Shown piece by piece: positions 16,643-37,961 of a stretch of 64,000 nucleotides of DNA (its first letter is position 1; each line of letters begins with the position of its first letter). The position numbers and the translations under genes were made by a program. The notes under the pieces were generated by a model. It made no database searches. It was given only the letters and a program-made list of their open reading frames with translations, and had not been told where the DNA came from. The stretch is taken from positions 17,432-81,431 of the IMG/VR virus record IMGVR_UViG_3300032289_001255. One strand, given 5' to 3'. The DNA comes from a virus (lineage: Duplodnaviria > Caudoviricetes).

Positions 16643-17491
16643 TTACTTACTATCTGTGACTGCGGACTTTGACTTTTCCCAGTCTTTATTTTTTCTAACT
16701 GATAAATTTCGATTCCAAGCTGCCTTTAATATAACGGGGTCAATATCAAATTTTTCAAATGTTTCTATAAAAGCGTTAATATCTTTTGGAAAACATGTGC
16801 CGCCAAATCCAAAATCATTATCGTGACCTGGTACTTGATAGTGACTTATACCAATTCTGCCATCGGACATAACACCACCTAATATTTTATCCCAAGATAG
16901 ATTTAATTTATCAGATAACAAAAACATTTCATTGAAGAATGATACTTTAGTTGCAAAGAAACAATTTGCAAAGTACTTTACAAATTCTGATTCTTTACTT
17001 TTCATTACATGACATGGAACTCCTGGGAATCTTTCTTCATATAACTTTTTAATGGTTAATGTTCCATTTACTTCTTCTCCGCCAACTATATTTCTACTAG
17101 GTGTAATAAAATCAATAGCAGCAGATCTTGCAGTCAAAAATTCGGGAGAATGAATGATTTTTAGTGAATTGAACTTTTCACAAAGATAATCTGTGGTACC
17201 AATCGGAACGGTTGATTTAATCACAAATATTGTTTGTGGATTATAAGTGTGGGTTATTACGGTATTAAAGAAATCAACAATATAAGAAGTATCCGATCCT
17301 AATGTATCTTTAAACATTGGAGTTGGTAAACAAACAAATACAATATCTTGTATTATAGTCTCGTCAAATGAATGTGTAGATTTTGCACTATTTACATCAT
17401 AGATTTTAACATCATGATAGTGATTTAAACCTCTGCAAATAGCACTTCCGACAAAGCCATTACCAACAATTCCGATTTTAAATTTTTGCAT
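16643..17491 (-). CDS. UDP-glucose/GDP-mannose dehydrogenase family, short form lacking the C-terminal domain
   Basis: GIVGNGFVG, VCLPTP, IKSTVPIG, SPEFL, GFGGTCFPKD catalytic Cys; only 282 aa. Confidence 0.88.
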   Translation of the reverse strand: MQKFKIGIVGNGFVGSAICRGLNHYHDVKIYDVNSAKSTHSFDETIIQDIVFVCLPTPMFKDTLGSDTSYIVDFFNTVITHTYNPQTIFVIKSTVPIGTTDYLCEKFNSLKIIHSPEFLTARSAAIDFITPSRNIVGGEEVNGTLTIKKLYEERFPGVPCHVMKSKESEFVKYFANCFFATKVSFFNEMFLLSDKLNLSWDKILGGVMSDGRIGISHYQVPGHDNDFGFGGTCFPKDINAFIETFEKFDIDPVILKAAWNRNLSVRKNKDWEKSKSAVTDSK

Positions 17492-20070: not shown

Positions 20071-20860
20071 AGTTTTGTTTTACTAAGTCCCATGTTTGTT
20101 TCATTAATTGGGTACGAGTGGCTCCTCTATCAGAGAATCCAGAAAATATCCAAACGTTTAAATATTTGATAAAGAATGGTGTTTTATCATTTGTATAAGA
20201 ATTGCCAGTTAATAAGTTACGTCTCCACAAGTGATTTACGCCGTGAGATATAGGAAACACTTTTGTATCTATTTTATTTATTTGTATAAAGTAGTTTAGG
20301 ACTGGTTGATCTCGACCACGTTTTACCAATTTGTCTTCGTGATTTAATATAGATTCGTGGTTATCAAAGTAGAACTTTTTCAAATCATCAAACATCGGTT
20401 TATGATTTTTATTAAATAAAACAAAGCCAGCTAGAAAATGTTTGGTGTAATCAAATTCGAATCCGTTAAAAAGATCTTTATATCCGTTTATACTTTCGTA
20501 TACCCACTTCATATTTTCGTTTCCCAATATTCCACATAACTTACTTTCGGATTCATTGAAGAAATTAGGAGCATCCCATTTTACCATGATAGATGCATCA
20601 ACTGCTAATATTTGATCAAAATCTCCTACTTTGTTTTTAACAAAATCGAAAATATCTAACCAACGTTGCCAATTGATTTTGTATTTGAGTTGGTCATCAT
20701 AGGTAGTAACATCATAGTGTACAAAAATAACATCGTTTTTCTTACACCAATATTGCCAAGATTTTTTGCTATATTCCATCCAAGAAAAATCGTCATAACG
20801 ATACTTTTCTTTTACGACATCACTACCTTTTACTCCACACCAAAACAATACGTTTTTCAT
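20063..20860 (-). CDS. GT8-like glycosyltransferase
   Basis: SWQYWCKKND, LAVDAS, RDQPVLNY; paralogous to 15883-16641; start at ATG 20860 by ATGA coupling. Confidence 0.7.
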   Translation of the reverse strand: MKNVLFWCGVKGSDVVKEKYRYDDFSWMEYSKKSWQYWCKKNDVIFVHYDVTTYDDQLKYKINWQRWLDIFDFVKNKVGDFDQILAVDASIMVKWDAPNFFNESESKLCGILGNENMKWVYESINGYKDLFNGFEFDYTKHFLAGFVLFNKNHKPMFDDLKKFYFDNHESILNHEDKLVKRGRDQPVLNYFIQINKIDTKVFPISHGVNHLWRRNLLTGNSYTNDKTPFFIKYLNVWIFSGFSDRGATRTQLMKQTWDLVKQNYE

Positions 20861-22419
20861 TTTATAAAATACTCTTTCCAATAGTTGTAGGTTTTATAAT
20901 CACTTGGGGTACCCCAACAAATATAATGTTCTACTTCAAATACTTTGACATTTAATCCGTGTTTGATATTTTGATTAATAACATCATCGACATAAAATTC
21001 ACCATTAGTTCTTATATTAGAATCATAGTTCTCTTTTAATCCGTCGATAAAATACTTGGCTTTTCTAAAAAACATTGTACCAATGATAGCATGGGTTTGT
21101 AAAGGATTATCGTAGATAAACTTTTTACACGAAACGTGATTGATGTTATTGTTTTCATCGACATCCAACCAAGAATACATATTAGGATTAACTTTACTCG
21201 TTTGATTGTTTCTAAATGACCACACAATTACATCAACTGTTGGATCATCGATTAATCGCTGATATTCGTTTGAATCGTAATATACACCATTGTCACACGC
21301 TGAAATTAAAATTGGGTTTTCTAATTCAATATTGAAGTGATTAATAGCTAATTCACATGTGCATGCTTGTCCTTCGGTAGTTTTATCTATTGATAAAACA
21401 GATGTGTTTTTATAATGTTGTTTAAGTGTAGTGTCTAATTTAAACTCATCCACGTGTTCTTTTAAACACACAAACGTATTATTGTCACAACTTGGTAGGC
21501 AATCAACTGCTTGCACAACCATTGGTAACCCATCTACGTCTATAAGAGGCTTTGGTAATTTAAAACCTTCCATTGAAAACCTACTTCCTCTACCAGCCAT
21601 CGGAAGTACTAGGGTAGTATTTGGTTGGTTAATAATTTCTAATTTATTGGTTTTAAGTTTTTTAAAATAAGATGACCATGATTTATATATCTCCAAATCG
21701 TATGGAGTTCCCCATTGCAACATTTTATCGATTTCAAATATATTTGTACGCAATCCATCTTTAACCAGTAGATTATATACTAAACTTATATAAAACTCAC
21801 CTTTTAGATCATTTCCAGATTCCAACAATTGTTTAAAGTATTTTTTTACCAAGTTACCACTTTTAAAGTAATATGTTCCATTTGAAGCATATTCATTCAT
21901 TTTATTGTTGGTAAACGGCTCTTTTTCTTTAATTTGAATCAATACTTTATTCTCTTCTTTACAGAAAGCATAGTTATCGATTCCTAACATATGTGGATGG
22001 AATCCTGTGTAACACGGAATTGAACCGTCAAAATTGCCGATGTGAATTTCTTCTAAGAATTTATCAAAATTCCATACTGTACCATAATCACAATAGGTTA
22101 TTATTGTTTCTTTGGAGTCGTCGATATGATCAAAGATCTGTGATACTGTGTAAACAGGACCTTTTTTGTGATTAGGAATAGAGTAGATTTTACAATTTGG
22201 CACAATTGATTCTAATACGGATCTCATATTAGTTTCTCTTAGATGTGGTTCATTGCAAATGAATGTTATATCAGTAACTCCTGGGAATAGATCAACTACG
22301 TGTTTAATAATAGGATGTCCATCTACTTCAATTAGTGGTTTTGGGTCTTTGTATCCAGCCTCAATGAATCGTTTGCCAATTCCTGACATTGGGATGATAA
22401 GTTGAATATTGTCTTTCAT
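20857..22419 (-). CDS. Tandem (two-domain) sugar-phosphate nucleotidyltransferase
   Basis: Two NTP-transferase domains: IIPMSGIGKRF..PKPLI..WGTPYDL and VLPMAGRGSRF..PKPLI..WGTPSDY. Confidence 0.85.
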   Translation of the reverse strand: MKDNIQLIIPMSGIGKRFIEAGYKDPKPLIEVDGHPIIKHVVDLFPGVTDITFICNEPHLRETNMRSVLESIVPNCKIYSIPNHKKGPVYTVSQIFDHIDDSKETIITYCDYGTVWNFDKFLEEIHIGNFDGSIPCYTGFHPHMLGIDNYAFCKEENKVLIQIKEKEPFTNNKMNEYASNGTYYFKSGNLVKKYFKQLLESGNDLKGEFYISLVYNLLVKDGLRTNIFEIDKMLQWGTPYDLEIYKSWSSYFKKLKTNKLEIINQPNTTLVLPMAGRGSRFSMEGFKLPKPLIDVDGLPMVVQAVDCLPSCDNNTFVCLKEHVDEFKLDTTLKQHYKNTSVLSIDKTTEGQACTCELAINHFNIELENPILISACDNGVYYDSNEYQRLIDDPTVDVIVWSFRNNQTSKVNPNMYSWLDVDENNNINHVSCKKFIYDNPLQTHAIIGTMFFRKAKYFIDGLKENYDSNIRTNGEFYVDDVINQNIKHGLNVKVFEVEHYICWGTPSDYKTYNYWKEYFIK

Positions 22420-22420
22420 T

Positions 22421-22897
22421 TTAATATAAACCTTTATTCTTAAGAGAAAATTTACACAAATCTACATAATCGGTACATACAGCGTAGACAATCTTATCAT
22501 TAAACTTTAATACTGATTCCTCGTCTAAAAGAGGAATGATACAGTTTTCATCTAATTTAAGACTCAAATCGTGTACCCAAAAATGATTTGTGCTTGTTAT
22601 AATATATGAGTCCTGCGAATGACAAAAATACTTTATATCACGATTTAATTTTTTTAATTCAATAGCTGCGTCTAAGTTTTTACAATGATACCAAATATCG
22701 TTTATTCTATTTATAATCCACATTTTATCAATTTTATAATCGGGAGTATCATGTCCGAGCCAAAACTCTCCGTTTATATATCGTATATCTACTTCAACTT
22801 CATATCCACTTCCTATAGCTGAATCAATATAAGATGGCCTATTTTCTTTATTTGGTACAATTCCTTTTAAATTTCCACGGTGTGATATAATTTTCAT
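22421..22897 (-). CDS. GDPD/PLC-like phosphodiesterase-fold protein
   Basis: KIISHRGNL, ENRPSYI, EVEVDIR, WLGHD, WYHCKN, AVCTDY. Confidence 0.65.
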   Translation of the reverse strand: MKIISHRGNLKGIVPNKENRPSYIDSAIGSGYEVEVDIRYINGEFWLGHDTPDYKIDKMWIINRINDIWYHCKNLDAAIELKKLNRDIKYFCHSQDSYIITSTNHFWVHDLSLKLDENCIIPLLDEESVLKFNDKIVYAVCTDYVDLCKFSLKNKGLY

Positions 22898-23190
22898 AAC
22901 TTTTCAATTGGTATTGTTTTATCATCTATGAATAAATCATAATACGGTTTATCAACTCGTAACTCATTATATTTTGCTCCCCACGAATCTAATTGATGTT
23001 TGGTCAAAACATACCAATTTATTTGTTTTCGACTTCCTCTCGCTGTCCAGTACACAATAGTATTGCCTTCTTCATATAACTTGTTTATTTTTTCTATGTT
23101 TTCTTTTATTGGAGTAGAATTTGCATAATTTCTATCTTCAGAAGTAGTACAAATTGTTTCGTCGATATCAACGTAAATTATTTTCCCCAT
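22894..23190 (-). CDS. HAD-superfamily phosphatase (capsule-biosynthesis phosphatase type)
   Basis: IYVDIDETI, VYWTARG, KPYYDLFIDDK. Confidence 0.85.
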   Translation of the reverse strand: MGKIIYVDIDETICTTSEDRNYANSTPIKENIEKINKLYEEGNTIVYWTARGSRKQINWYVLTKHQLDSWGAKYNELRVDKPYYDLFIDDKTIPIEKL

Positions 23191-23193
23191 AAA

Positions 23194-24747
23194 TTATTTT
23201 TTCTTGTAAATTCTATTCTTGTGAATTAAAATATCTAAATCTGTATTATTTAATACATGAAATGCATCTTTTAATGTAGTTAATATAGGCAATCCTTTTA
23301 TATTAAAAGATGTATTTAATAAAACCGGTATTAATGATTGATTTGACATTTCGGTCAAGATGTCATAGAAAAAGCAGTCATTTGAAACTGTTTGTAATCT
23401 GGATGTGTTGTCGGCATGTGTTATTGATGGTAGTTTTGTTCTCCATGTTTCTTTTACTTTTGGTGCAAATGACATATACTTGCAGTCAGGTGCATTTTCA
23501 AAAAATACATCTTTATCTTCGATTTTACAGACAGGAGCAAATGGTCTAAACCATTCTCTGAACTTCACTTTGCTATTTAAAATATCTTTCATTTCTGGAA
23601 ATGCCGGATAACAAATTATACTACGATTGCCTAATGCACGTGGTCCTGCTTCGGAATAGCCGTCTATAATCGCGATTATTTTTCCGTCTTTTAAATATGT
23701 AATTAATTTTTTAAGATCCAACTCTTCCGATGGGTTATCATAATTTTGAATCTCGTTTTCATCCAAAATTTCAAATCCACTGAAACAAATCTCTTCTTTA
23801 GTTACCGCATTTTTGTGTTCGTTAGTAAACATGCCAAATGATAAGCCACAGTCGTTTGGATTAGGTGGTACGTATAATTCTAAGTTTTTTGTTTTTAAAT
23901 ATTCATATAGTCTTTGATTAAATAATACATTTAACGCACATCCACCTGTCATTACAACGTTAAGATTGTACTTTTCTACGTTAACTTTAACTAAATCAAA
24001 AAGAATTTCTTCGAAAACGTACTGTGATGTTTTTGCAATATCCCACGCTACTTGTCCTTTTAAAGATTTCGGCTGAACACTTAGTGAAGATAATAAATAG
24101 TCTTTATTACTAGTAGAATAAAATTCTCTGAAGATTTTTACCCAATCGGATCTAACATTTCCGTATGCTGTCAATCCCATCAATTTACCTGCTGCACCCA
24201 GATCACCGACAATTTCTGATAATGGTATCGCCGTAAAATTATATGGATTTGCAACGTCTATGTTCGGTCTACTGATATGTTTTATCTCATTTTCCTTGTA
24301 CAGATAAACATTTGTAGTAGAAACACTCCCATTGTCTCTGCCACCACCATCTACTGAAAAAATTAAACACTCTTTAAATCCAGAAAGATGAAATGCGCCG
24401 TAAGCATGAGAAATATGATGATTACAATATTTTAGGTCGGCATTTGGAAAATATTTTTTAAATAAAACTAAGTCTTCATTCGCGAACATATCGTGATGTA
24501 ACACCAATTTAATATCTTCACAATATAAATTTTTTTTGATGTGATTTAAAAAATCTTCTCTATTTTTATCTTTTGTTCCGAGTGAGGATCTGTGATTTTC
24601 TAAACTTTTTGAAAACATCGCATATCTCTTTTTCACGAATCTTTCGTATTCATATATTCTTAACTTTTTATTTTTATCGATAAATGTACATGAACAGTCA
24701 TGAGATCCATTTATTGCTATAGTTTCTTCTGGGAGTATATTATTCAT
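23194..24747 (-). CDS. O-carbamoyltransferase (NodU/CmcH/NovN family)
   Basis: GSHD, ERFVKKR, HHISHA, SVDGGG, GKLMGLTAYG, GGCALN, EAGPRALGNRSI, REWFRPFAP, LLNTSFN. Confidence 0.93.
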   Translation of the reverse strand: MNNILPEETIAINGSHDCSCTFIDKNKKLRIYEYERFVKKRYAMFSKSLENHRSSLGTKDKNREDFLNHIKKNLYCEDIKLVLHHDMFANEDLVLFKKYFPNADLKYCNHHISHAYGAFHLSGFKECLIFSVDGGGRDNGSVSTTNVYLYKENEIKHISRPNIDVANPYNFTAIPLSEIVGDLGAAGKLMGLTAYGNVRSDWVKIFREFYSTSNKDYLLSSLSVQPKSLKGQVAWDIAKTSQYVFEEILFDLVKVNVEKYNLNVVMTGGCALNVLFNQRLYEYLKTKNLELYVPPNPNDCGLSFGMFTNEHKNAVTKEEICFSGFEILDENEIQNYDNPSEELDLKKLITYLKDGKIIAIIDGYSEAGPRALGNRSIICYPAFPEMKDILNSKVKFREWFRPFAPVCKIEDKDVFFENAPDCKYMSFAPKVKETWRTKLPSITHADNTSRLQTVSNDCFFYDILTEMSNQSLIPVLLNTSFNIKGLPILTTLKDAFHVLNNTDLDILIHKNRIYKKK

Positions 24748-24751
24748 AAAT

Positions 24752-25429
24752 TTATTTTATAACATTCTGTCTGTAAATTTCATTAGTGTCTTTTTTTATC
24801 TGTACCACTTTGTCTTCAGAAATAAACGTACATTGTCCAAGAGACTTGGACCCAATAAATATTTCAGCGGACTTTTCACATATTTCAGTAGCAATTAAAC
24901 ATTCTTTACTTGAAGATGCAGCGCAGATTATACCATGATTTACCAATAAGATCAACTTTGGTAAATATCCATTGTCTTCTATAAATTTGTCAACGAATAC
25001 TTCTACATTTTTACATAATTCTTCGCCGGGATGTGCATAGGGAACTATACAGGATTTTTCTCCGTTAAAAACAACTTGATCCGGAAAAACTCGTTTATTT
25101 GCAAATTCCTCTATTAAAATTTGATTACTACATAGTATTTTAAGTGTATTTGTTGGGTGTGTATGTGCTACGAAATTAACTCTTGATTTTTGTAAGAGAA
25201 ATGAATGAAATCCAGTTTCTATGCTTGGTTTTTTGTTAAAGTTGTTTAACTGTTTTCCATTAAAATCACATTTAACTAAATCATCATACGATAAATGTTT
25301 TAATGTGGTACCACTTGCCTTTATTACAAATCCGTCTTCAAGTTTTTCAGAAACATTTCCCTCTGCACCAACAACATAATTCTTAAGACACGTTCCGAGT
25401 ATTAATAAATCATTATTTGAATTTTGCAT
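24752..25429 (-). CDS. Class II aldolase/adducin-family protein
   Basis: GAEGNVS, IKASG, KPSIETGFH, VAHTHP, LVNHGI (Zn ligands). Confidence 0.88.
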   Translation of the reverse strand: MQNSNNDLLILGTCLKNYVVGAEGNVSEKLEDGFVIKASGTTLKHLSYDDLVKCDFNGKQLNNFNKKPSIETGFHSFLLQKSRVNFVAHTHPTNTLKILCSNQILIEEFANKRVFPDQVVFNGEKSCIVPYAHPGEELCKNVEVFVDKFIEDNGYLPKLILLVNHGIICAASSSKECLIATEICEKSAEIFIGSKSLGQCTFISEDKVVQIKKDTNEIYRQNVIK

Positions 25430-25450
25430 AACAAGTTTAAATTATTTTAA

Positions 25451-26236
25451 TTAGACAACAATAGTCCAATTGTCTAATGACATGGGTTCTAATTTCAACT
25501 CATGTTTGTAATAAGTATCTTTGAGCAAACCACCCCATCTTTCTTTTCGTACAAACGGGTAAATATATATTTTTATATTTTTAAATATTCCATATCGTGC
25601 GTCTAATATATAACAAAACGATGCCCATACAGAATCTACAAAATGCATCTCTTTGGCATGTTCTAAAATTTTTATCATATTAAACATATCCAAAGCTTTT
25701 CCGTTTAAGTCTATATACTTTGTAGATTCATGTTTTTCAAAATTTATAGCTGAATCTCCTAAGTGGTTATCATGGTATAATACATAATCGGATCCGTGTT
25801 CCGCAATAAACTTTTCGTAAAATATATTCTCATTAATAACATCACGTTCAATATTGAAAAAGTTAATTTTATTAATATAATCTATACCATAACAAATATA
25901 ATATTTTTTATTAAAATGAATGGCTGACGACGAAGACATAAATGCGTTTTTATATTGGTCGTTTCTATTTGCGTCCAACTTACCATGCAATAAATAATCG
26001 TAAATGTCTGGGTCAAATTTATTGTAAAAATCTTTTGACACTTTAGTTGTCGCCAGAGGATCGTAAATTTTAGTTATATTGTTTTTATTCTTTAAATAAA
26101 ATTCAAAAATTGGTTTTGCTTCGGGTCTTAGTATTACTGTTATATTATCATATTTTGACAAATAATAATCAATCATGGATAAGTGATTTACTAAATCCGT
26201 CCACGATTGATAAAAAAATAAAAGACCTTGTTTCAT
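25451..26236 (-). CDS. Hypothetical protein, possible glycosyltransferase
   Basis: AKEMHFVDSVW tail and N-terminal YQSWTD (HxGxGD-like); operon context. Confidence 0.4.
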   Translation of the reverse strand: MKQGLLFFYQSWTDLVNHLSMIDYYLSKYDNITVILRPEAKPIFEFYLKNKNNITKIYDPLATTKVSKDFYNKFDPDIYDYLLHGKLDANRNDQYKNAFMSSSSAIHFNKKYYICYGIDYINKINFFNIERDVINENIFYEKFIAEHGSDYVLYHDNHLGDSAINFEKHESTKYIDLNGKALDMFNMIKILEHAKEMHFVDSVWASFCYILDARYGIFKNIKIYIYPFVRKERWGGLLKDTYYKHELKLEPMSLDNWTIVV

Positions 26237-26248
26237 TGAAAATACATA

Positions 26249-27016
26249 TCACCCAACTACGCCGTCATAAAACTTTTTATTTGTATTATTTAAAGTCAAT
26301 GACTCTATTATTTTATTATATTCCGGTATGAGTTTTGAATCCAATCCATTATTTGACCTGGGTAATAGTTTTCCTTTGTGAGTGATGTGAATAAATTGAA
26401 AAAAAGACAAACAACTAAACCATCCACATTTTATAGGATTATCAGAGTAAAGTTTGTAAATTTTATATTTAAGACAGTGTTTCATCACAGATTCATTTTC
26501 AATCGTTCTATATGTCTCATTTTTAAAAATCTCCATTGTTTCTAATAATACATTCAATTTCCAGATAGAAGGGTTTACATTGTATATGTAATTGTTTATA
26601 TTTCTCTGCGCTCTTAATTCAACCTTTAAATCATTAAATTTAATTGATAATCTGTCTTTATTATATAGATCCCAGTTATGTCTACATTGTAAGTCTATTC
26701 TATCAATTGAATGTTCAGTCATATAATTTTTTATATGACTGATATATGAATCGTCTTTTTTAACAACTATATCAATGTCATGAATAAAAAGAATATATTC
26801 GTTTTTTAAACATTTTAATGATAGAACTCTGCTCGCATAAGGCAACGAATCGTCATAAAAAATAACTTGGCTATATTTACAATATAAATGATCTAAATTT
26901 TTGTCAGATTTGTTTATCAGTAAAATTTTATCCGTGTACTCTAACGCTTGTGTCTGGACAGAAAGTATATCTAAATAATCTGTGTGTGAATAAACCACAT
27001 ATGTTAACTCGTTCAT
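26249..27016 (-). CDS. Putative GT-A glycosyltransferase
   Basis: YILFIHDIDI (DxD), YNVNPSIW. Confidence 0.5.
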   Translation of the reverse strand: MNELTYVVYSHTDYLDILSVQTQALEYTDKILLINKSDKNLDHLYCKYSQVIFYDDSLPYASRVLSLKCLKNEYILFIHDIDIVVKKDDSYISHIKNYMTEHSIDRIDLQCRHNWDLYNKDRLSIKFNDLKVELRAQRNINNYIYNVNPSIWKLNVLLETMEIFKNETYRTIENESVMKHCLKYKIYKLYSDNPIKCGWFSCLSFFQFIHITHKGKLLPRSNNGLDSKLIPEYNKIIESLTLNNTNKKFYDGVVG

Positions 27017-27060
27017 ATTTAAAAATCTTTTTGTAGTATTGTTTTTTACACATACATACG

Positions 27061-27693
27061 TTAGTGATTTATATATTTGAAAATTGAAATAATATAAAAT
27101 GATGGATCTAGAATCATTTTATTTACCAATTCAAATTTTATATTATATTTTTCTTGTATATCACGATGTGCTTTACTTTGTCCATTTTCATATTCATTTT
27201 TGTTATTCATCAAAAATGAACCCCAGTCGTCATATATTATGATCGATCCATTACACAATAAATTGTTTTTTAAAACAAATTCCCAAACCTCTAATGTGGA
27301 TGTGTATATATCACAGTCCATATGTAAAATTCCTATTTTTTTATTATCGAATTTTGTTACTAAAGAATCAGTCAGTGTCTCAGAAAACCATCCATCGATG
27401 ATATGTGCGTCCTTTTTGTTAAGAAGTTCAGGATTAATATTTCCATTACATGAAAATTTTCCAGTCTTCCAAGGTGAATGTAAATCATTTTTTTCGACAG
27501 GCAACCCAACGAATGAATCAAAACCAAAAAAATTTCTATCAAGATTGTAGTTTTTATACAAATTATAAAACTCTAGAAAAGATTCCCCTTTATGTACGCC
27601 GAATTCTAAAAATAATTTATCTCGTAAAAAGTCTGAGTTTTTGGATACTAGTTCGTTTCTCAGTGACGTTTTGATTCTATTGTAAACATTCAT
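27061..27693 (-). CDS. TylF/MycF/NovP-family O-methyltransferase
   Basis: LEFGVHKG, GFDSFVGLP, GWFSETL, LHMDCDIYTST, IIYDDW. Confidence 0.85.
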   Translation of the reverse strand: MNVYNRIKTSLRNELVSKNSDFLRDKLFLEFGVHKGESFLEFYNLYKNYNLDRNFFGFDSFVGLPVEKNDLHSPWKTGKFSCNGNINPELLNKKDAHIIDGWFSETLTDSLVTKFDNKKIGILHMDCDIYTSTLEVWEFVLKNNLLCNGSIIIYDDWGSFLMNNKNEYENGQSKAHRDIQEKYNIKFELVNKMILDPSFYIISIFKYINH

Positions 27694-27694
27694 A

Positions 27695-29122
27695 TTAACA
27701 TTGTGATTTTAAATTAAGTATTATGTAAAATATATAATTGTAATATTTTACATAATTTTCTTCGGGGATTCCAAAATTCCATCGTTCACAGTATATGTAT
27801 CTATTGAACGATATAATCTTAAATTTTTCATTTGTTTTAAATTCATATGGAATGTTGTACTTTGAAAAAGATGAAAGTATATTTTCAACTGAGTGTTTTT
27901 TGTTAATAAGAATATTAAGACCCAATGACATATCTTCTTTTTCAAAAAAGTTTACAACTATATCTGAATTATCTTTTTGTGGAGCTATATATTTTTTATA
28001 GTCGTTTTTTCTATCAGATATTTGTTTAATTACTTTCTCTTCTGTATATCCTCTTGTTTTCACATCTCTTTCTAATTTCCACTTTGTTTTTAGAGATTCA
28101 TCGGGATCCATATATATTGAGAAATTATATATATGACCAGCATCTCCATATAAACTGTGCAATCCACACACTATAATATTATCTGCATTTTCTATTTTTT
28201 CTGGTTGTTTAAATTTGCCTGTGTTATGATCATAATCCACTTGAAATATAGAATTACCTATTTTTAGATTAAAAACATCCTCTTGCATTTTAGATACGAA
28301 ATTTGCATCAGGATTCAAATGTGTATATGTTTTCCAGTTTTCACTGTGTCTTTCCCATTTATGGTATCTGTCACATTCTAATAAAATTGAATTTGAAAAG
28401 TATTTTTTAAGTAAATTTCCGAGTGTAGTTTTTCCAGAACCAGAGTCACCACATATAGCAAATACATTACACATAGATAATATTACTTCGTATTCTATAT
28501 CATCCTCTACGTAATCCAGTTTATTTTCGTTCAAATGGTAAAATAATACTGTTTCAGAGACAAAGCCATGTAACTTAACTAAATCGTTTAAATTTTTATA
28601 TAAATCAAAATATTTGTCCATTAACTCCGATGACCCATAGGCTATTATATCGCACAAATATGGGTCATTTATACTTTGTAGTTTGGTTTTATCTAAAACC
28701 GTATTTTTTGGTATATGGATTTTATCTAAATCGCAATCGAAATTTATGAGTTGAAGATTTACATCTGGTCTTATTTTGATTACAATGTCATATTTTCCGT
28801 GTAATTCTTCGTTTAATTTTTTAATAAAATTGAGTTTATAAAATTTAAACCATGTATTATACAAGCAATTTTCTTTTGAATTGTTCGAAAATATTAAATT
28901 ATTTTCTTCTAATATAACTTTTGGTGACAATTCGGATTCTATGGATTTTATAATATCAGACAAATCATTGGGATTTAAATACTTATCTTCTAAAGATTCA
29001 TTTTTTGTTATGTGGATATAAACGTCTGTTGATTTGAAATTGTCAATAATAAACTTTTTAATATTAGGTAGATTTAACTTAATAGTTCGTAAATATCCAG
29101 ATATTAATAAAGCGGCTTTCAT
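27695..29122 (-). CDS. Fusion: putative glycosyltransferase plus phosphoribulokinase/uridine-kinase-like P-loop kinase
   Basis: N-half KAALLISGYLR...YDIVIKIRPD; C-half GDSGSGKT, ECDRYH, LNPDAN, YDHNTG, VCGLHSLY, WKLERDVKTRG, YIAPQK..SD. Start at ATG 29122 (TAATG overlap). Confidence 0.8.
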   Translation of the reverse strand: MKAALLISGYLRTIKLNLPNIKKFIIDNFKSTDVYIHITKNESLEDKYLNPNDLSDIIKSIESELSPKVILEENNLIFSNNSKENCLYNTWFKFYKLNFIKKLNEELHGKYDIVIKIRPDVNLQLINFDCDLDKIHIPKNTVLDKTKLQSINDPYLCDIIAYGSSELMDKYFDLYKNLNDLVKLHGFVSETVLFYHLNENKLDYVEDDIEYEVILSMCNVFAICGDSGSGKTTLGNLLKKYFSNSILLECDRYHKWERHSENWKTYTHLNPDANFVSKMQEDVFNLKIGNSIFQVDYDHNTGKFKQPEKIENADNIIVCGLHSLYGDAGHIYNFSIYMDPDESLKTKWKLERDVKTRGYTEEKVIKQISDRKNDYKKYIAPQKDNSDIVVNFFEKEDMSLGLNILINKKHSVENILSSFSKYNIPYEFKTNEKFKIISFNRYIYCERWNFGIPEENYVKYYNYIFYIILNLKSQC

Positions 29123-30348
29123 TATATTATATTTTTTAATGTTTCTAAATTTAGACTCCAACTACAATTTAATCCATTATCTAATTTTTTACATTTTTCT
29201 TTTTTCAATAATATGGTTTTGTATGTTATACTCGCATTCCATCCTGTTATTTTTTCATCGGAGTATTTAACTAATACTTCGTCATTCAAAACTTCTTCTA
29301 TTTCTCCAACCACATTTTCTGATTGTACTCGCATAAATTGTTTAAACTCATTTGATTCCGTGTGTTTTGTGTCCAGAAAGTAATAAGTATTTACTTTGTT
29401 CAAGCTGTAAGTAAATCTATAATTTACATCCAAAAATGTGGGTGATACTAATGTTATCAATTTACACAGTGGTTTACTAAACAATACATTAACAATTCCA
29501 CCTCCAATTGCGCCTACAATTGATTCCGCATTATTAAACAACAATATTTTATCGACAGTGGATAATTTTTCTGTGAATACCTCTTCATATCCTTGTGATT
29601 TTAACAAATCAACCAGTTCATTTTCATTTTCACACTTTCTTCTGGTCGTATAATTTGTACCTATATTTGAAAAGTCGTTATGAATCCACGTTCTTCTTGA
29701 TATGTAAAATTTCTTTGGAAATTGTTTTTCGATCTTTAACTCTTTTACATTTTCTACAATTTCTTTATATAAATCGTAGATTTCTTCTCTAGGTTGTTGT
29801 TTCGGATCGGGTCCGTATGTATAAGTCGATGATATATAAACATGAGAATATACGGTGTCTTTATTTAATATAACTATATCCGATGAATCGATTTTCAATA
29901 TCTCAAGAAATTCGGTTACAAATTTATAAAATTTATCGCCGTGAGAATAATACATTAAAAGTTTAAGATTTTTAGTTATGATTTTTAATTTTTTATATGT
30001 AATCAGATATGGTAATGTGTCGTATATAAAGTGATAATAATTATCCGTATTATAAATGAAGTAAAAAACGGGATCGTTATACGTCTCAGATGTATTTCCC
30101 ACTTTATAATCTATTTTATCCGTACTATTAATGTTTCGTAAAGACATCGTTGACTCTTCAAGTGGTTGATAAAATGTATTATCTAATTTTGAATATAATA
30201 CTAAATTTGGATAATATAGAGATGATCCTGTAAAAACAACATCATTTAAAACATGAATATTAATTTCATCAAAATTATCAGATTTAGGAAATATTTCGAA
30301 TTTGTGATTGCCATTATCTGAAGTATTAAGATTTTTTATAGGTGTCAT
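29122..30348 (-). CDS. Glycosyltransferase family 61 (DUF563)-like
   Basis: NYYHFIYDTLP, FYISRR, RKCENE, EKLSTVDKILLFNNAESIVGAIGGGIVN. Confidence 0.8.
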   Translation of the reverse strand: MTPIKNLNTSDNGNHKFEIFPKSDNFDEINIHVLNDVVFTGSSLYYPNLVLYSKLDNTFYQPLEESTMSLRNINSTDKIDYKVGNTSETYNDPVFYFIYNTDNYYHFIYDTLPYLITYKKLKIITKNLKLLMYYSHGDKFYKFVTEFLEILKIDSSDIVILNKDTVYSHVYISSTYTYGPDPKQQPREEIYDLYKEIVENVKELKIEKQFPKKFYISRRTWIHNDFSNIGTNYTTRRKCENENELVDLLKSQGYEEVFTEKLSTVDKILLFNNAESIVGAIGGGIVNVLFSKPLCKLITLVSPTFLDVNYRFTYSLNKVNTYYFLDTKHTESNEFKQFMRVQSENVVGEIEEVLNDEVLVKYSDEKITGWNASITYKTILLKKEKCKKLDNGLNCSWSLNLETLKNII

Positions 30349-37241: not shown

Positions 37242-37961
37242 TTATTGATTAAATTGTTTTGTATCTCTTTCGTTAACTAACTGACTATACTTTTTGTTTG
37301 GAGTAGGAATTCCACCTAAACTATTATAGAGTGCTTCCATTTTACTCATTTGAACTTGAGCTATTTCGGCTTTCTCTGTTTTTTTAACATCGGTACTACC
37401 AAATCCACCGTCGCCTCTGTCTGTAGAATCTAGTTCATTTACTAATACAAATTCTACGTCTTCAACTCTGGTTATTTTTAGTTGACAAACTTTATCCCCC
37501 TTTTTATAGAGTTTTTCAATATTTGGTTTTCCTACTATATAATTGTACAATGGAGATCCATCATTTGATAGATGGGGATATATACTATAATCTTCTGGTT
37601 GCCAAATATATTTAAATCGAAGCAATACCTCACCACGATAATCTGCATCGATTAATCCAATACAGTTAGCTAACACCAGATTATATTTACTAACACTACT
37701 ACGAGGAAATGCTAGAATATCATAATCAATATCAGTATAACCAAAGTTACTGAATTGACGATCTTTTTGAACTGCCAACTTAAGATTGGTCTTGTATTGA
37801 ATGTAGTCAATGCGTTTGTATGTACCATTCTCATACTGATCACCAACGATCTCTGGATCACTTGTAACAAGTACATCAAATCCAGTAGCTCTATCAGTAC
37901 CTTTCTTTGGTAGATTTTCTACATCTTGATAATCTTCGTTCTTTAATACTTGAATTTTCAT
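37242..37961 (-). CDS. dut: dUTP diphosphatase (trimeric dUTPase)
   Basis: ATGFDV, PRSS, GLIDADYRGE, RGDGGFGSTD. Confidence 0.92.
   Translation of the reverse strand: MKIQVLKNEDYQDVENLPKKGTDRATGFDVLVTSDPEIVGDQYENGTYKRIDYIQYKTNLKLAVQKDRQFSNFGYTDIDYDILAFPRSSVSKYNLVLANCIGLIDADYRGEVLLRFKYIWQPEDYSIYPHLSNDGSPLYNYIVGKPNIEKLYKKGDKVCQLKITRVEDVEFVLVNELDSTDRGDGGFGSTDVKKTEKAEIAQVQMSKMEALYNSLGGIPTPNKKYSQLVNERDTKQFNQ

Follow-up and report, generated by a model that had tools for sequence, protein, structure and literature searches.

A recurrent viral gene cassette around a phosphoribulokinase-like fusion protein, possibly serving the activation and transfer of a five-carbon sugar

The window analyzed here is a stretch of 64,000 nucleotides from a virus (positions 17,432 to 81,431 of the IMG/VR record IMGVR_UViG_3300032289_001255), and its interval 20857-29122 harbors genes for a phosphoribulokinase (PRK)-like kinase fused to a putative glycosyltransferase, a class II aldolase-fold enzyme, a small HAD phosphatase, a GDPD-fold protein, and a double nucleotidyltransferase. 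We lean toward reading this interval as a conserved cassette for sugar activation and transfer, which would convert ribulose 5-phosphate (Ru5P) into a nucleotide-activated five-carbon sugar destined for a phage glycan. An initial annotation, made from the sequence alone, had named these five proteins, and each was found where it had been placed and with the fold it had been given. The genes of the interval lie on the minus strand, separated by intergenic gaps of 1-44 nt or overlapping, and the core features are the following.

20857..22419, minus strand, tandem sugar-phosphate nucleotidyltransferase of 520 aa, halves at aa 8-227 and 271-507 (PF12804, PF00483, PF01128)
22421..22897, minus strand, minimal GDPD/PI-PLC-fold protein ('SHRGN') of 158 aa (profile, AF2 pLDDT 97.6, Foldseek)
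22894..23190, minus strand, minimal capless HAD phosphatase of 98 aa, DIDET (HAD motifs; TIGR01689)
24752..25429, minus strand, class II aldolase-fold enzyme, proposed ketose-1-phosphate epimerase or aldolase (PF00596, 5.5e-26)
27695..28465, minus strand, C-terminal phosphoribulokinase-like P-loop kinase domain of the fusion protein (PF00485, 8.9e-35)
28469..29122, minus strand, N-terminal GT-A-fold domain (DUF7796) of the fusion protein, aa 1-218 (AF2 pLDDT 91.7, Foldseek, VIA)

The linkage among these genes was assessed in 84 viral loci anchored on the kinase fusion, all five genes being counted as co-occurring when located within 10 kb. Two layouts cover all 84 loci. Layout A, found in 64 loci including the window, comprises the kinase fusion, a short aldolase, a 98-aa HAD, a 150-aa GDPD-fold protein, and a 520-aa double nucleotidyltransferase. 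The kinase fusion, the small HAD, and the GDPD-fold protein are found together in 64 of the 84 loci, all five genes in 51, and in 23 loci the five are strictly colinear and contiguous; the aldolase fold is missing from five of the 64 layout-A loci with the small HAD and the GDPD-fold protein. In layout B (20 loci, many labeled as giant-virus metagenome-assembled genomes, MAGs), the aldolase-fold domain is longer and joined in one protein with a capped HAD_2 domain, and a 200-aa domain with HR.N, E.D.R, and HD motifs is either free or located N-terminally on the double nucleotidyltransferase, to which it is fused in six loci. The hhalign support for GDPD-like homology of this layout-B domain is weak, so that the homology rests on the motif. 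The GT-A–PRK fusion was observed in every viral copy among 32 aligned homologues. Together, the fusions of GT-A with PRK, of HAD with the aldolase fold, and of the GDPD-like domain with the nucleotidyltransferase link all parts of the cassette. The initial annotation had staked its proposal on conserved co-occurrence of the module, and the five genes do recur together in dozens of viral contigs, joined by these fusions. Its list of five was incomplete, in that it omitted a GT61 partner (29122-30348) and left unmentioned the four genes lying in between, among which one is a strain-specific insertion. Our literature searches found no publication on this cassette.

The fusion protein (27695-29122) comprises 475 aa from its ATG, the listed open reading frame beginning at a TTG 13 codons upstream. 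As had been recognized in the initial annotation, its PRK-like C-half (PF00485, 8.9e-35) lies behind a putative glycosyltransferase domain, the N-half modeling as a GT-A fold. The class of the kinase, PRK versus uridine kinase, was judged from family-model and structure-match scores. Cyanobacterial, plant, and archaeal PRKs of the PDB match the kinase domain at 1.7e-34 to 1e-21, with the cyanobacterial PRK 9qko at 1.7e-34 and 6hzk at 4.8e-32, as against only 2.7e-6 for uridine kinase. Among the NCBIfam models, PRK reaches 184 bits and udk 72 bits; the uridine/cytidine kinase cut-offs are not reached (NF004018, 72 vs 180 bits; TIGR00235, 64 vs 220 bits), the PDB uridine kinases matching at 3e-6 or worse. 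These scores set the protein apart from a plain uridine kinase, the outcome that the initial annotation had considered damaging to its proposal.

The Walker A P-loop GDSGSGKT, which the translation confirms at 28427-28450 (aa 225-232) as originally claimed, is invariant in the 32 homologues, and so are D251, R258, Y297, H299, R352, D353, and R357, with conserved spacing. The latter seven align with D57, R64, Y103, H105, R159, D160, and R164 of CrPRK, which are the catalytic base and the residues holding Ru5P and its phosphate. Since all PRK catalytic and Ru5P-binding residues are kept, the kinase is expected to act on Ru5P or a similar ketose phosphate and to yield a 1,5-bisphosphate. The conservation of those residues that bind Ru5P by its 5-phosphate also disfavors a side proposal of the initial annotation, namely that the kinase caps or phosphorylates the glycan. 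Compared with PRK (6hzk, 6h7g, 5b3f, and 9qko), the domain shares the P-loop, the catalytic Asp, and all Ru5P-binding residues at about 40% identity over about 190 residues, whereas the last ~130 residues of PRK, with the dimer interface and the C-terminal Cys pair, are swapped for an unrelated 75-residue tail, the regulatory Cys of the P-loop is replaced by Ser, and the domain is fused behind GT-A in viruses or behind a seven-transmembrane domain in an E. coli plasmid. The full-length fusion has more than 1100 metagenome homologues at about 50% identity, and the last homologue search with the kinase returned only viral fragments and stand-alone viral kinases. A tblastn search of cultured phages with the fusion gave one weak partial match only, which indicates that no cultured phage has it. 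A pattern scan of 185,579 species genomes of cellular organisms yielded one MAG contig, the patterns being specific to the viral form so that diverged bacterial kinases could escape them; the plasmid copy demonstrates that such kinases exist.

The N-half of the window protein has no Pfam hit itself, and its relatives match DUF7796 of Pfam. Its model has GT6 as best Foldseek match (BoGT6a, E 3e-7), and VIA ranks BoGT6a (Z 13.3, rmsd 3.5 Å over 189 residues), ColGalT1 (13.0), and Mnn9 (12.5) before nucleotidyltransferases of the GT-A superfold. On this modeled fold the N-half is likely a glycosyltransferase, a role that falls short of proven because nucleotidyltransferases of the same superfold follow at Z ~11. 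Its invariant residues are G9, R12, D33, H37, E42, D46, Y48, D112, R118, D120, and D158. At the canonical DxD position after strand 4 stands R118-P119-D120, with D112 upstream, and BoGT6a is metal-independent according to the title of its entry.

All four HAD motifs (DxDxT, T/S, K, and DD) are present in the 98-aa protein, with D8.D10.T12, T49, K73 or K81, and D85/D89/D90 conserved across 41 sequences, and its family matches are weak and below cut-off (TIGR01689 capsule phosphatase, 3.9e-8; PF25109, 0.004). The fused HAD of layout B has as its best match the haloarchaeal ribulose-1,5-bisphosphate 5-phosphatase model (7e-41), far below cut-off. The aldolase-fold protein scores 92 bits with PF00596 against a gathering score of 22.2 and retains the zinc histidines, the phosphate-binding GN.S and SG, the loop Glu (S.E), HTH, and NHG, with H89, H91, H165, N25, S27, S39, G40, and E71 at least 95% conserved. 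It lies below every NCBIfam equivalog cut-off (FucA, AraD, MtnB, ribulose 1-phosphate (Ru1P) aldolase, OtnC, and RhaD), the best score being that of the L-Ru5P 4-epimerase subfamily (61 vs 251 bits), with Ru1P aldolase at 50 vs 300 and MtnB at 46 vs 137. The window protein matches the Ru1P aldolase model at 2.8e-13, and the closest solved structures include 2irp and also 6btd/6btg, a 5-deoxyribulose-1-P aldolase.

The 158-aa GDPD-fold protein has no hit among the Pfam and NCBIfam models, including PF03009, a full GDPD barrel being of about 230-250 aa. A 54-sequence profile of the family matches the GDPD structures 3i10 and 7e0v (2e-4) over the HRG..EN..E.D..HD catalytic stretch, the sequence likeness being confined to the first ~55 residues, and the best Foldseek matches of the model (pLDDT 97.6) are GDPDs (6e-4, TM 0.58). 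With H6, R7, N19, E35, D37, H49, K73, H93, and W107 invariant and E18 and D50 also conserved, the protein keeps a full predicted phosphodiesterase site. The family numbers more than 2200 cluster representatives, and its nearest Atlas clusters are 96-100% viral. Elsewhere, GT61, a methyltransferase, and a HAD hydrolase were seen as fusion partners of the GDPD-fold domain (metagenome proteins P0194, P0202, P0200, and P0304), and one of these records holds the start of a ribulose-phosphate 3-epimerase after the GDPD-fold domain.

The double nucleotidyltransferase scores above the Pfam cut-offs (PF12804, 47 bits; PF00483, 25.9 bits), its rmlA_long and Arch_glmU matches falling on separate halves. 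The G.G.R and K-P motifs occur in both halves, in which G13, G15, R17, and K27 and, respectively, G276, G278, R280, and K290 are invariant, and from these motifs both halves look active. They score higher against sugar-1-phosphate enzymes (RmlA, GlmU, and AglF) than against IspD. This is the most conserved protein of the cassette, with 65-75% identity across more than 100 clusters and thousands of homologues in the databases.

Related gene sets were also found in cultured cyanophages and on plasmids. The cyanophages S-SM2 (45%) and Bellamy (48%) have the double nucleotidyltransferase, then genes for GT61, the aldolase, the small HAD, and the GDPD-fold protein; GT61 directly follows the nucleotidyltransferase in S-SM2, and a free-standing DUF7796 gene lies just upstream in Bellamy. 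A PRK-type kinase was not found in S-SM2 or Bellamy by tblastn. The kinase-free cyanophages were considered as evidence that the PRK of the autotrophic host supplies ribulose 1,5-bisphosphate (RuBP), which was downgraded to a hint because PfkB or GHMP kinases lie a few kb from the cyanophage cassettes. In S-SM2 (NC_015279: 154113-158172), SSM2_207 and SSM2_210 ('phosphoheptose isomerase') share 66% and 45% identity, respectively, with the window 98-aa HAD, and this likeness to a HAD phosphatase indicates that the isomerase annotation is probably wrong.

The same five enzyme types occur in one gene run on two 99.9-100% identical E. coli plasmids. The genes of this run encode a double nucleotidyltransferase, GtrA, a GT2 with a GtrB-like annotation, a PI-PLC/GDPD protein of 201 aa, and a protein of 660 aa in which a PRK domain is combined with seven predicted membrane segments, along with a HAD, a class II aldolase, and a polytopic membrane protein. 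One plasmid, of 33 kb and IncR type, was found in an isolate from human stool (NZ_CP145712: 6022-14984), and the near-identical one comes from a bullfrog isolate; E. coli S1-CAM-01-A is a carrier strain. By near or distant DNA search the plasmid cassette is found in only 2 of 5426 complete E. coli genomes, and no link to serogroups O95 or O97 could be made across these genomes. From the GtrA/GtrB-like lipid-carrier wiring we argue for a nucleotide-sugar donor as the end product. A third variant (L007:9995-13278, also in L008-L013) has a free DUF7796 GT-A, a beta-phosphoglucomutase-like HAD fused to a single nucleotidyltransferase, a 248-aa protein, and a GDPD-fold protein; it is without kinase or aldolase and lies beside genes for GDP-mannose dehydratase, GT11, and GT6. 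The 248-aa protein was tried as a hidden second nucleotidyltransferase and rejected (hhalign probability 0.1%).

In the window phage, the cassette is interrupted by two to five accessory genes, either for tailoring or unnamed. These genes and the adjoining glycosyltransferase are the following.

23194..24747, minus strand, O-carbamoyltransferase, NodU/CmcH type (PF16861, 4.3e-53; PF02543, 2e-16)
25451..26236, minus strand, 261-aa protein, no family hit (Pfam, NCBIfam)
26249..27016, minus strand, 255-aa protein, possibly a GT-A glycosyltransferase (no Pfam or NCBIfam hit)
27061..27693, minus strand, TylF-type O-methyltransferase, accessory tailoring gene (PF05711, 4.6e-10)
29122..30348, minus strand, GT61-family glycosyltransferase (Pfam PF04577, 1.2e-17)

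GT61 is a near-constant neighbor of the cassette, with a homologue in 75 of the 84 kinase-anchored loci, and the 255-aa protein, which contains an HDIDIV motif and whose closest named Atlas cluster, GT2 (score 0.94), offers just a lead, has one in 59. Homologues of the 261-aa protein are found in some loci only, and those of the TylF-type methyltransferase in just nine. No carbamoyltransferase homologue was found in the 84 related loci, including L001-L004, which are 96-100% identical to the window; in these four contigs the aldolase and HAD genes are adjacent, and only in the window genome are they split by the carbamoyltransferase gene, which points to a very recent, strain-specific insertion in the operon.

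The window as a whole is viral and has a G+C content of about 30%. Its family B DNA polymerase shares 41% identity with the enzyme of Microcystis phage Mel-JY01 and about 28% with T4-like cyanophage gp43, a class Ia ribonucleotide reductase beta subunit is also encoded, and gp32 adjoins relatives of the cassette region on contigs of 215-328 kb; the source is a T4-like phage, large and uncultured. Between about 11.2 and 39.5 kb (~28 kb) all genes lie tightly packed on the minus strand, forming an operon of about 30 soluble glycan genes that include GT2, GT4, GT61, C- and O-methyltransferases, SDR, a UDP-glucose dehydrogenase fragment, and proteins without family. No membrane segments were predicted in 33 proteins of the cluster, which indicates that the glycan is made in the cytoplasm. 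The UDP-glucose/GDP-mannose dehydrogenase homologue (16643-17491) has only 282 aa; its N-terminal domain lacks the first ~76 profile positions and its C-terminal domain is missing entirely, so that it may be truncated or split. Also in the cluster, a 239-aa protein (37242-37961) matches dUTPase over only ~40 residues of its C-terminal part (7.6e-12).

The domain assignments and the gene linkage are observations, from which we infer each reaction of the following route. The PRK-like domain would phosphorylate O1 of Ru5P from the host pentose-phosphate pathway to RuBP, and the small HAD phosphatase would take off the 5-phosphate to leave Ru1P, so that the pair would shift the phosphate from C5 to C1, as in heptose activation. 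The aldolase-fold enzyme, dispensable in some relatives, would then alter the stereochemistry of the ketose 1-phosphate, giving xylulose 1-phosphate; since this fold is optional, a tailoring epimerase is favored over a skeleton-destroying enzyme. The double nucleotidyltransferase, together with the GDPD-fold protein, would turn the sugar phosphate into a nucleotide-linked donor, from which the fused GT-A and the neighboring GT61 would add the sugar to a cytoplasm-built glycan. This glycan is probably located on virion proteins, given that no membrane segment occurs in the ~30 cluster proteins. The TylF-type methyltransferase and the inserted carbamoyltransferase of the window phage would probably decorate the sugar or its neighbors. 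A ketopentose such as xylulofuranose is our leading guess for the product. The central proposal of the initial annotation, an unusual activated sugar feeding the fused glycosyltransferase, is partly supported and stands as the best reading, with the genes linked and the kinase PRK-like; the product is a putative one. Its view that the module is not a case of Calvin-cycle hijacking agrees with the finding that the kinase gene is always located among glycosyltransferases.

The cassette is made of known enzyme families and follows a known activation logic. With the NDP-glycero-manno-heptose pathway (GmhA, HldE/HddA, GmhB, and HldE/HddC) it shares a position-1 kinase, a small HAD removing the distal phosphate, a nucleotidyltransferase, and a location in glycan gene clusters. 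In contrast to that pathway, its kinase is of PRK and not of PfkB/GHMP type, it lacks a SIS isomerase, its aldolase fold, GDPD-fold protein, and doubled nucleotidyltransferase have no counterpart there, and its substrate is probably a C5 ketose with a non-anomeric C1 phosphate. The haloarchaeal non-carboxylating pentose bisphosphate pathway, which is characterized, has an operonic RuBP 5-phosphatase and Ru1P aldolase (PMC9700705). There too a HAD phosphatase and a class II aldolase-fold enzyme act downstream of RuBP, the two being fused in the second viral/bacterial layout, whereas in the cassette RuBP would come from a PRK-like kinase and not from a ribose 1,5-bisphosphate isomerase, the context is anabolic, with glycosyltransferases and nucleotidyltransferases, and not one of nucleoside catabolism, and the enzymes score far below the haloarchaeal-type equivalog cut-offs. 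In relation to Gtr-type glycosylation (GtrA, GtrB, and GT-C), the plasmid cassette is interleaved with GtrA and a GtrB-like GT2, its product presumably being loaded on polyprenyl phosphate, whereas the phage cassette has no membrane proteins and transfer would be by the soluble cytoplasmic GT-A and GT61.

Several observations weigh against the proposed route from Ru5P to a nucleotide-activated sugar. With the PRK model NF005655, the 184 bits fall short of the 236-bit cut-off and the alignment covers no more than profile positions 10-191 of 326, and the PDB alignments of the kinase domain end near residue 200, the C-terminal region of PRK being lacking. The margin of the layout-B HAD over an unrelated HAD model is only 10 bits (140 vs 130), and the window HAD belongs to a different, capless subfamily from this RuBP-phosphatase-like protein. 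FucA uses a loop Glu to protonate the enediolate, and AraD-type epimerases carry Asp there; the aldolase-fold protein retains the FucA-type Glu, and by this residue it may cleave its substrate to dihydroxyacetone phosphate (DHAP) and glycolaldehyde or dehydrate it in the manner of MtnB. The function of the GDPD-fold protein in the route is a guess. The C1 phosphate of a ketose is not anomeric, so that an extra step would be needed to obtain a real glycosyl donor. In the cyanophages, the nearby PfkB and GHMP kinases suggest that the entry substrate may differ.

The non-anomeric phosphate leads to a more specific proposal, which we hold tentatively and with considerable doubt, namely that the cassette supplies the biosynthetic route still missing for a nucleotide-activated ketopentofuranose, either xylulofuranose or ribulofuranose, with the phosphate walking first from C5 to C1 and then on to the anomeric O2. 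The 1-phosphate would be activated by one half of the nucleotidyltransferase, the PI-PLC/GDPD-fold enzyme would cyclize it to a 1,2-cyclic phosphate and open this to the 2-phosphate, and the second nucleotidyltransferase half would make the true glycosyl donor. The PI-PLC/GDPD superfamily makes 1,2-cyclic phosphates, and since a phosphate on C1 does not by itself allow a ketose to be activated, the GDPD-fold enzyme may move this phosphate onto the anomeric O2 between the two nucleotidyl transfers. The constant pairing and the fusion of the GDPD-like domain with the double nucleotidyltransferase fit such a phosphate walk; the single nucleotidyltransferase of the third variant implies that doubling is not universal in the wider family, which weakens it. 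Xylulofuranose, free or O-methylated, is found in chlorovirus N-glycans, its absolute configuration being still undefined (PMC9614988), and in the O-antigens of E. coli O95 and O97, for which the NDP-Xulf genes are not known (PMC7685785). Among the chloroviruses, MT325 and TN603 have xylulofuranose and PBCV-1 is without it; ketofuranosides are labile in acid. No paper naming an NDP-xylulose was found in our literature searches. The window methyltransferase beside the kinase would fit a methylated pentulose, as circumstantial evidence, and the rarity of the plasmid cassette in E. coli, together with the missing link to O95 or O97, argues slightly against the cassette as the xylulose route of that species.

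Other explanations were weighed against the same evidence. In an unlikely one, the nucleotidyltransferase makes an NDP-1-pentulose or, after reduction by the host, an NDP-pentitol like CDP-ribitol, the pentulose phosphate is installed as a phosphodiester, and the GDPD-fold enzyme, which keeps all phosphodiesterase residues, trims or edits it. IspD- and MobA-type matches on the nucleotidyltransferase halves and faint matches to RXYLT1 (ribitol-phosphate xylosyltransferase) in neighboring glycosyltransferases of relatives agree with such a phospho-sugar donor, and IspD-type enzymes are able to activate pentulose phosphates by way of a phosphate that is not anomeric, ISPD making CDP-ribulose and CDP-ribitol (PMC4924997). 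However, the halves are closer to the anomeric sugar-1-phosphate enzymes than to IspD, the core set is without a reductase, a TagF-, LicD-, or fukutin-type phosphotransferase was not found, and the GtrB-like GT2 of the bacterial version normally uses an NDP-glycosyl donor. We judge slightly less likely still a catabolic shunt from Ru5P through RuBP and Ru1P to DHAP and glycolaldehyde, an auxiliary metabolism that merely sits beside glycan genes. It can draw on the three enzyme types shared with the characterized haloarchaeal pathway (PMC9700705) and on the FucA-type Glu and zinc histidines of the aldolase, yet the kinase is always fused to GT-A within glycosyltransferase clusters, the set co-occurs with and is fused to nucleotidyltransferase and GDPD-like domains, the aldolase is the dispensable member, and spending ATP to make DHAP from Ru5P would bring no obvious gain to the phage.

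We give little credence to a role in DNA hypermodification, with the sugar placed on phage DNA, for instance on hydroxymethylated pyrimidines. The solubility of all cluster proteins and the dUTPase-like protein at 37242-37961 speak for it, whereas the more than 10 glycosyltransferases of eukaryote-like families and the C- and O-methyltransferases around the cassette go far beyond the needs of base glycosylation, and the bacterial version feeds a lipid-carrier envelope system. Hardly credible is a uridine/cytidine kinase, or a kinase phosphorylating the finished glycan, without metabolic link to the other enzymes: metagenome pipelines label the family 'uridine kinase' and PF00485 spans both activities, but PRK is ahead of uridine kinase by ~110 bits among the models and by 28 orders of magnitude among the structures, the Ru5P-binding residues are invariant, and co-occurrence with the other enzymes is conserved.

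If the sugar-activation reading is true, the cassette would represent a nucleotide-sugar pathway of unusual reach, with homologues from freshwater and marine phages and giant-virus-MAG-labeled contigs as well as an E. coli plasmid, and an enzyme type of the Calvin cycle would have been recruited for glycan building. The activation of ketopentoses such as xylulofuranose for glycosylation, left open by reviews of E. coli O-antigens and giant-virus glycans, becomes testable, with the S-SM2, Bellamy, and E. coli plasmid versions as experimental handles. For the uncultured T4-like phages themselves, the cassette points to elaborate glycans built in the cytoplasm.

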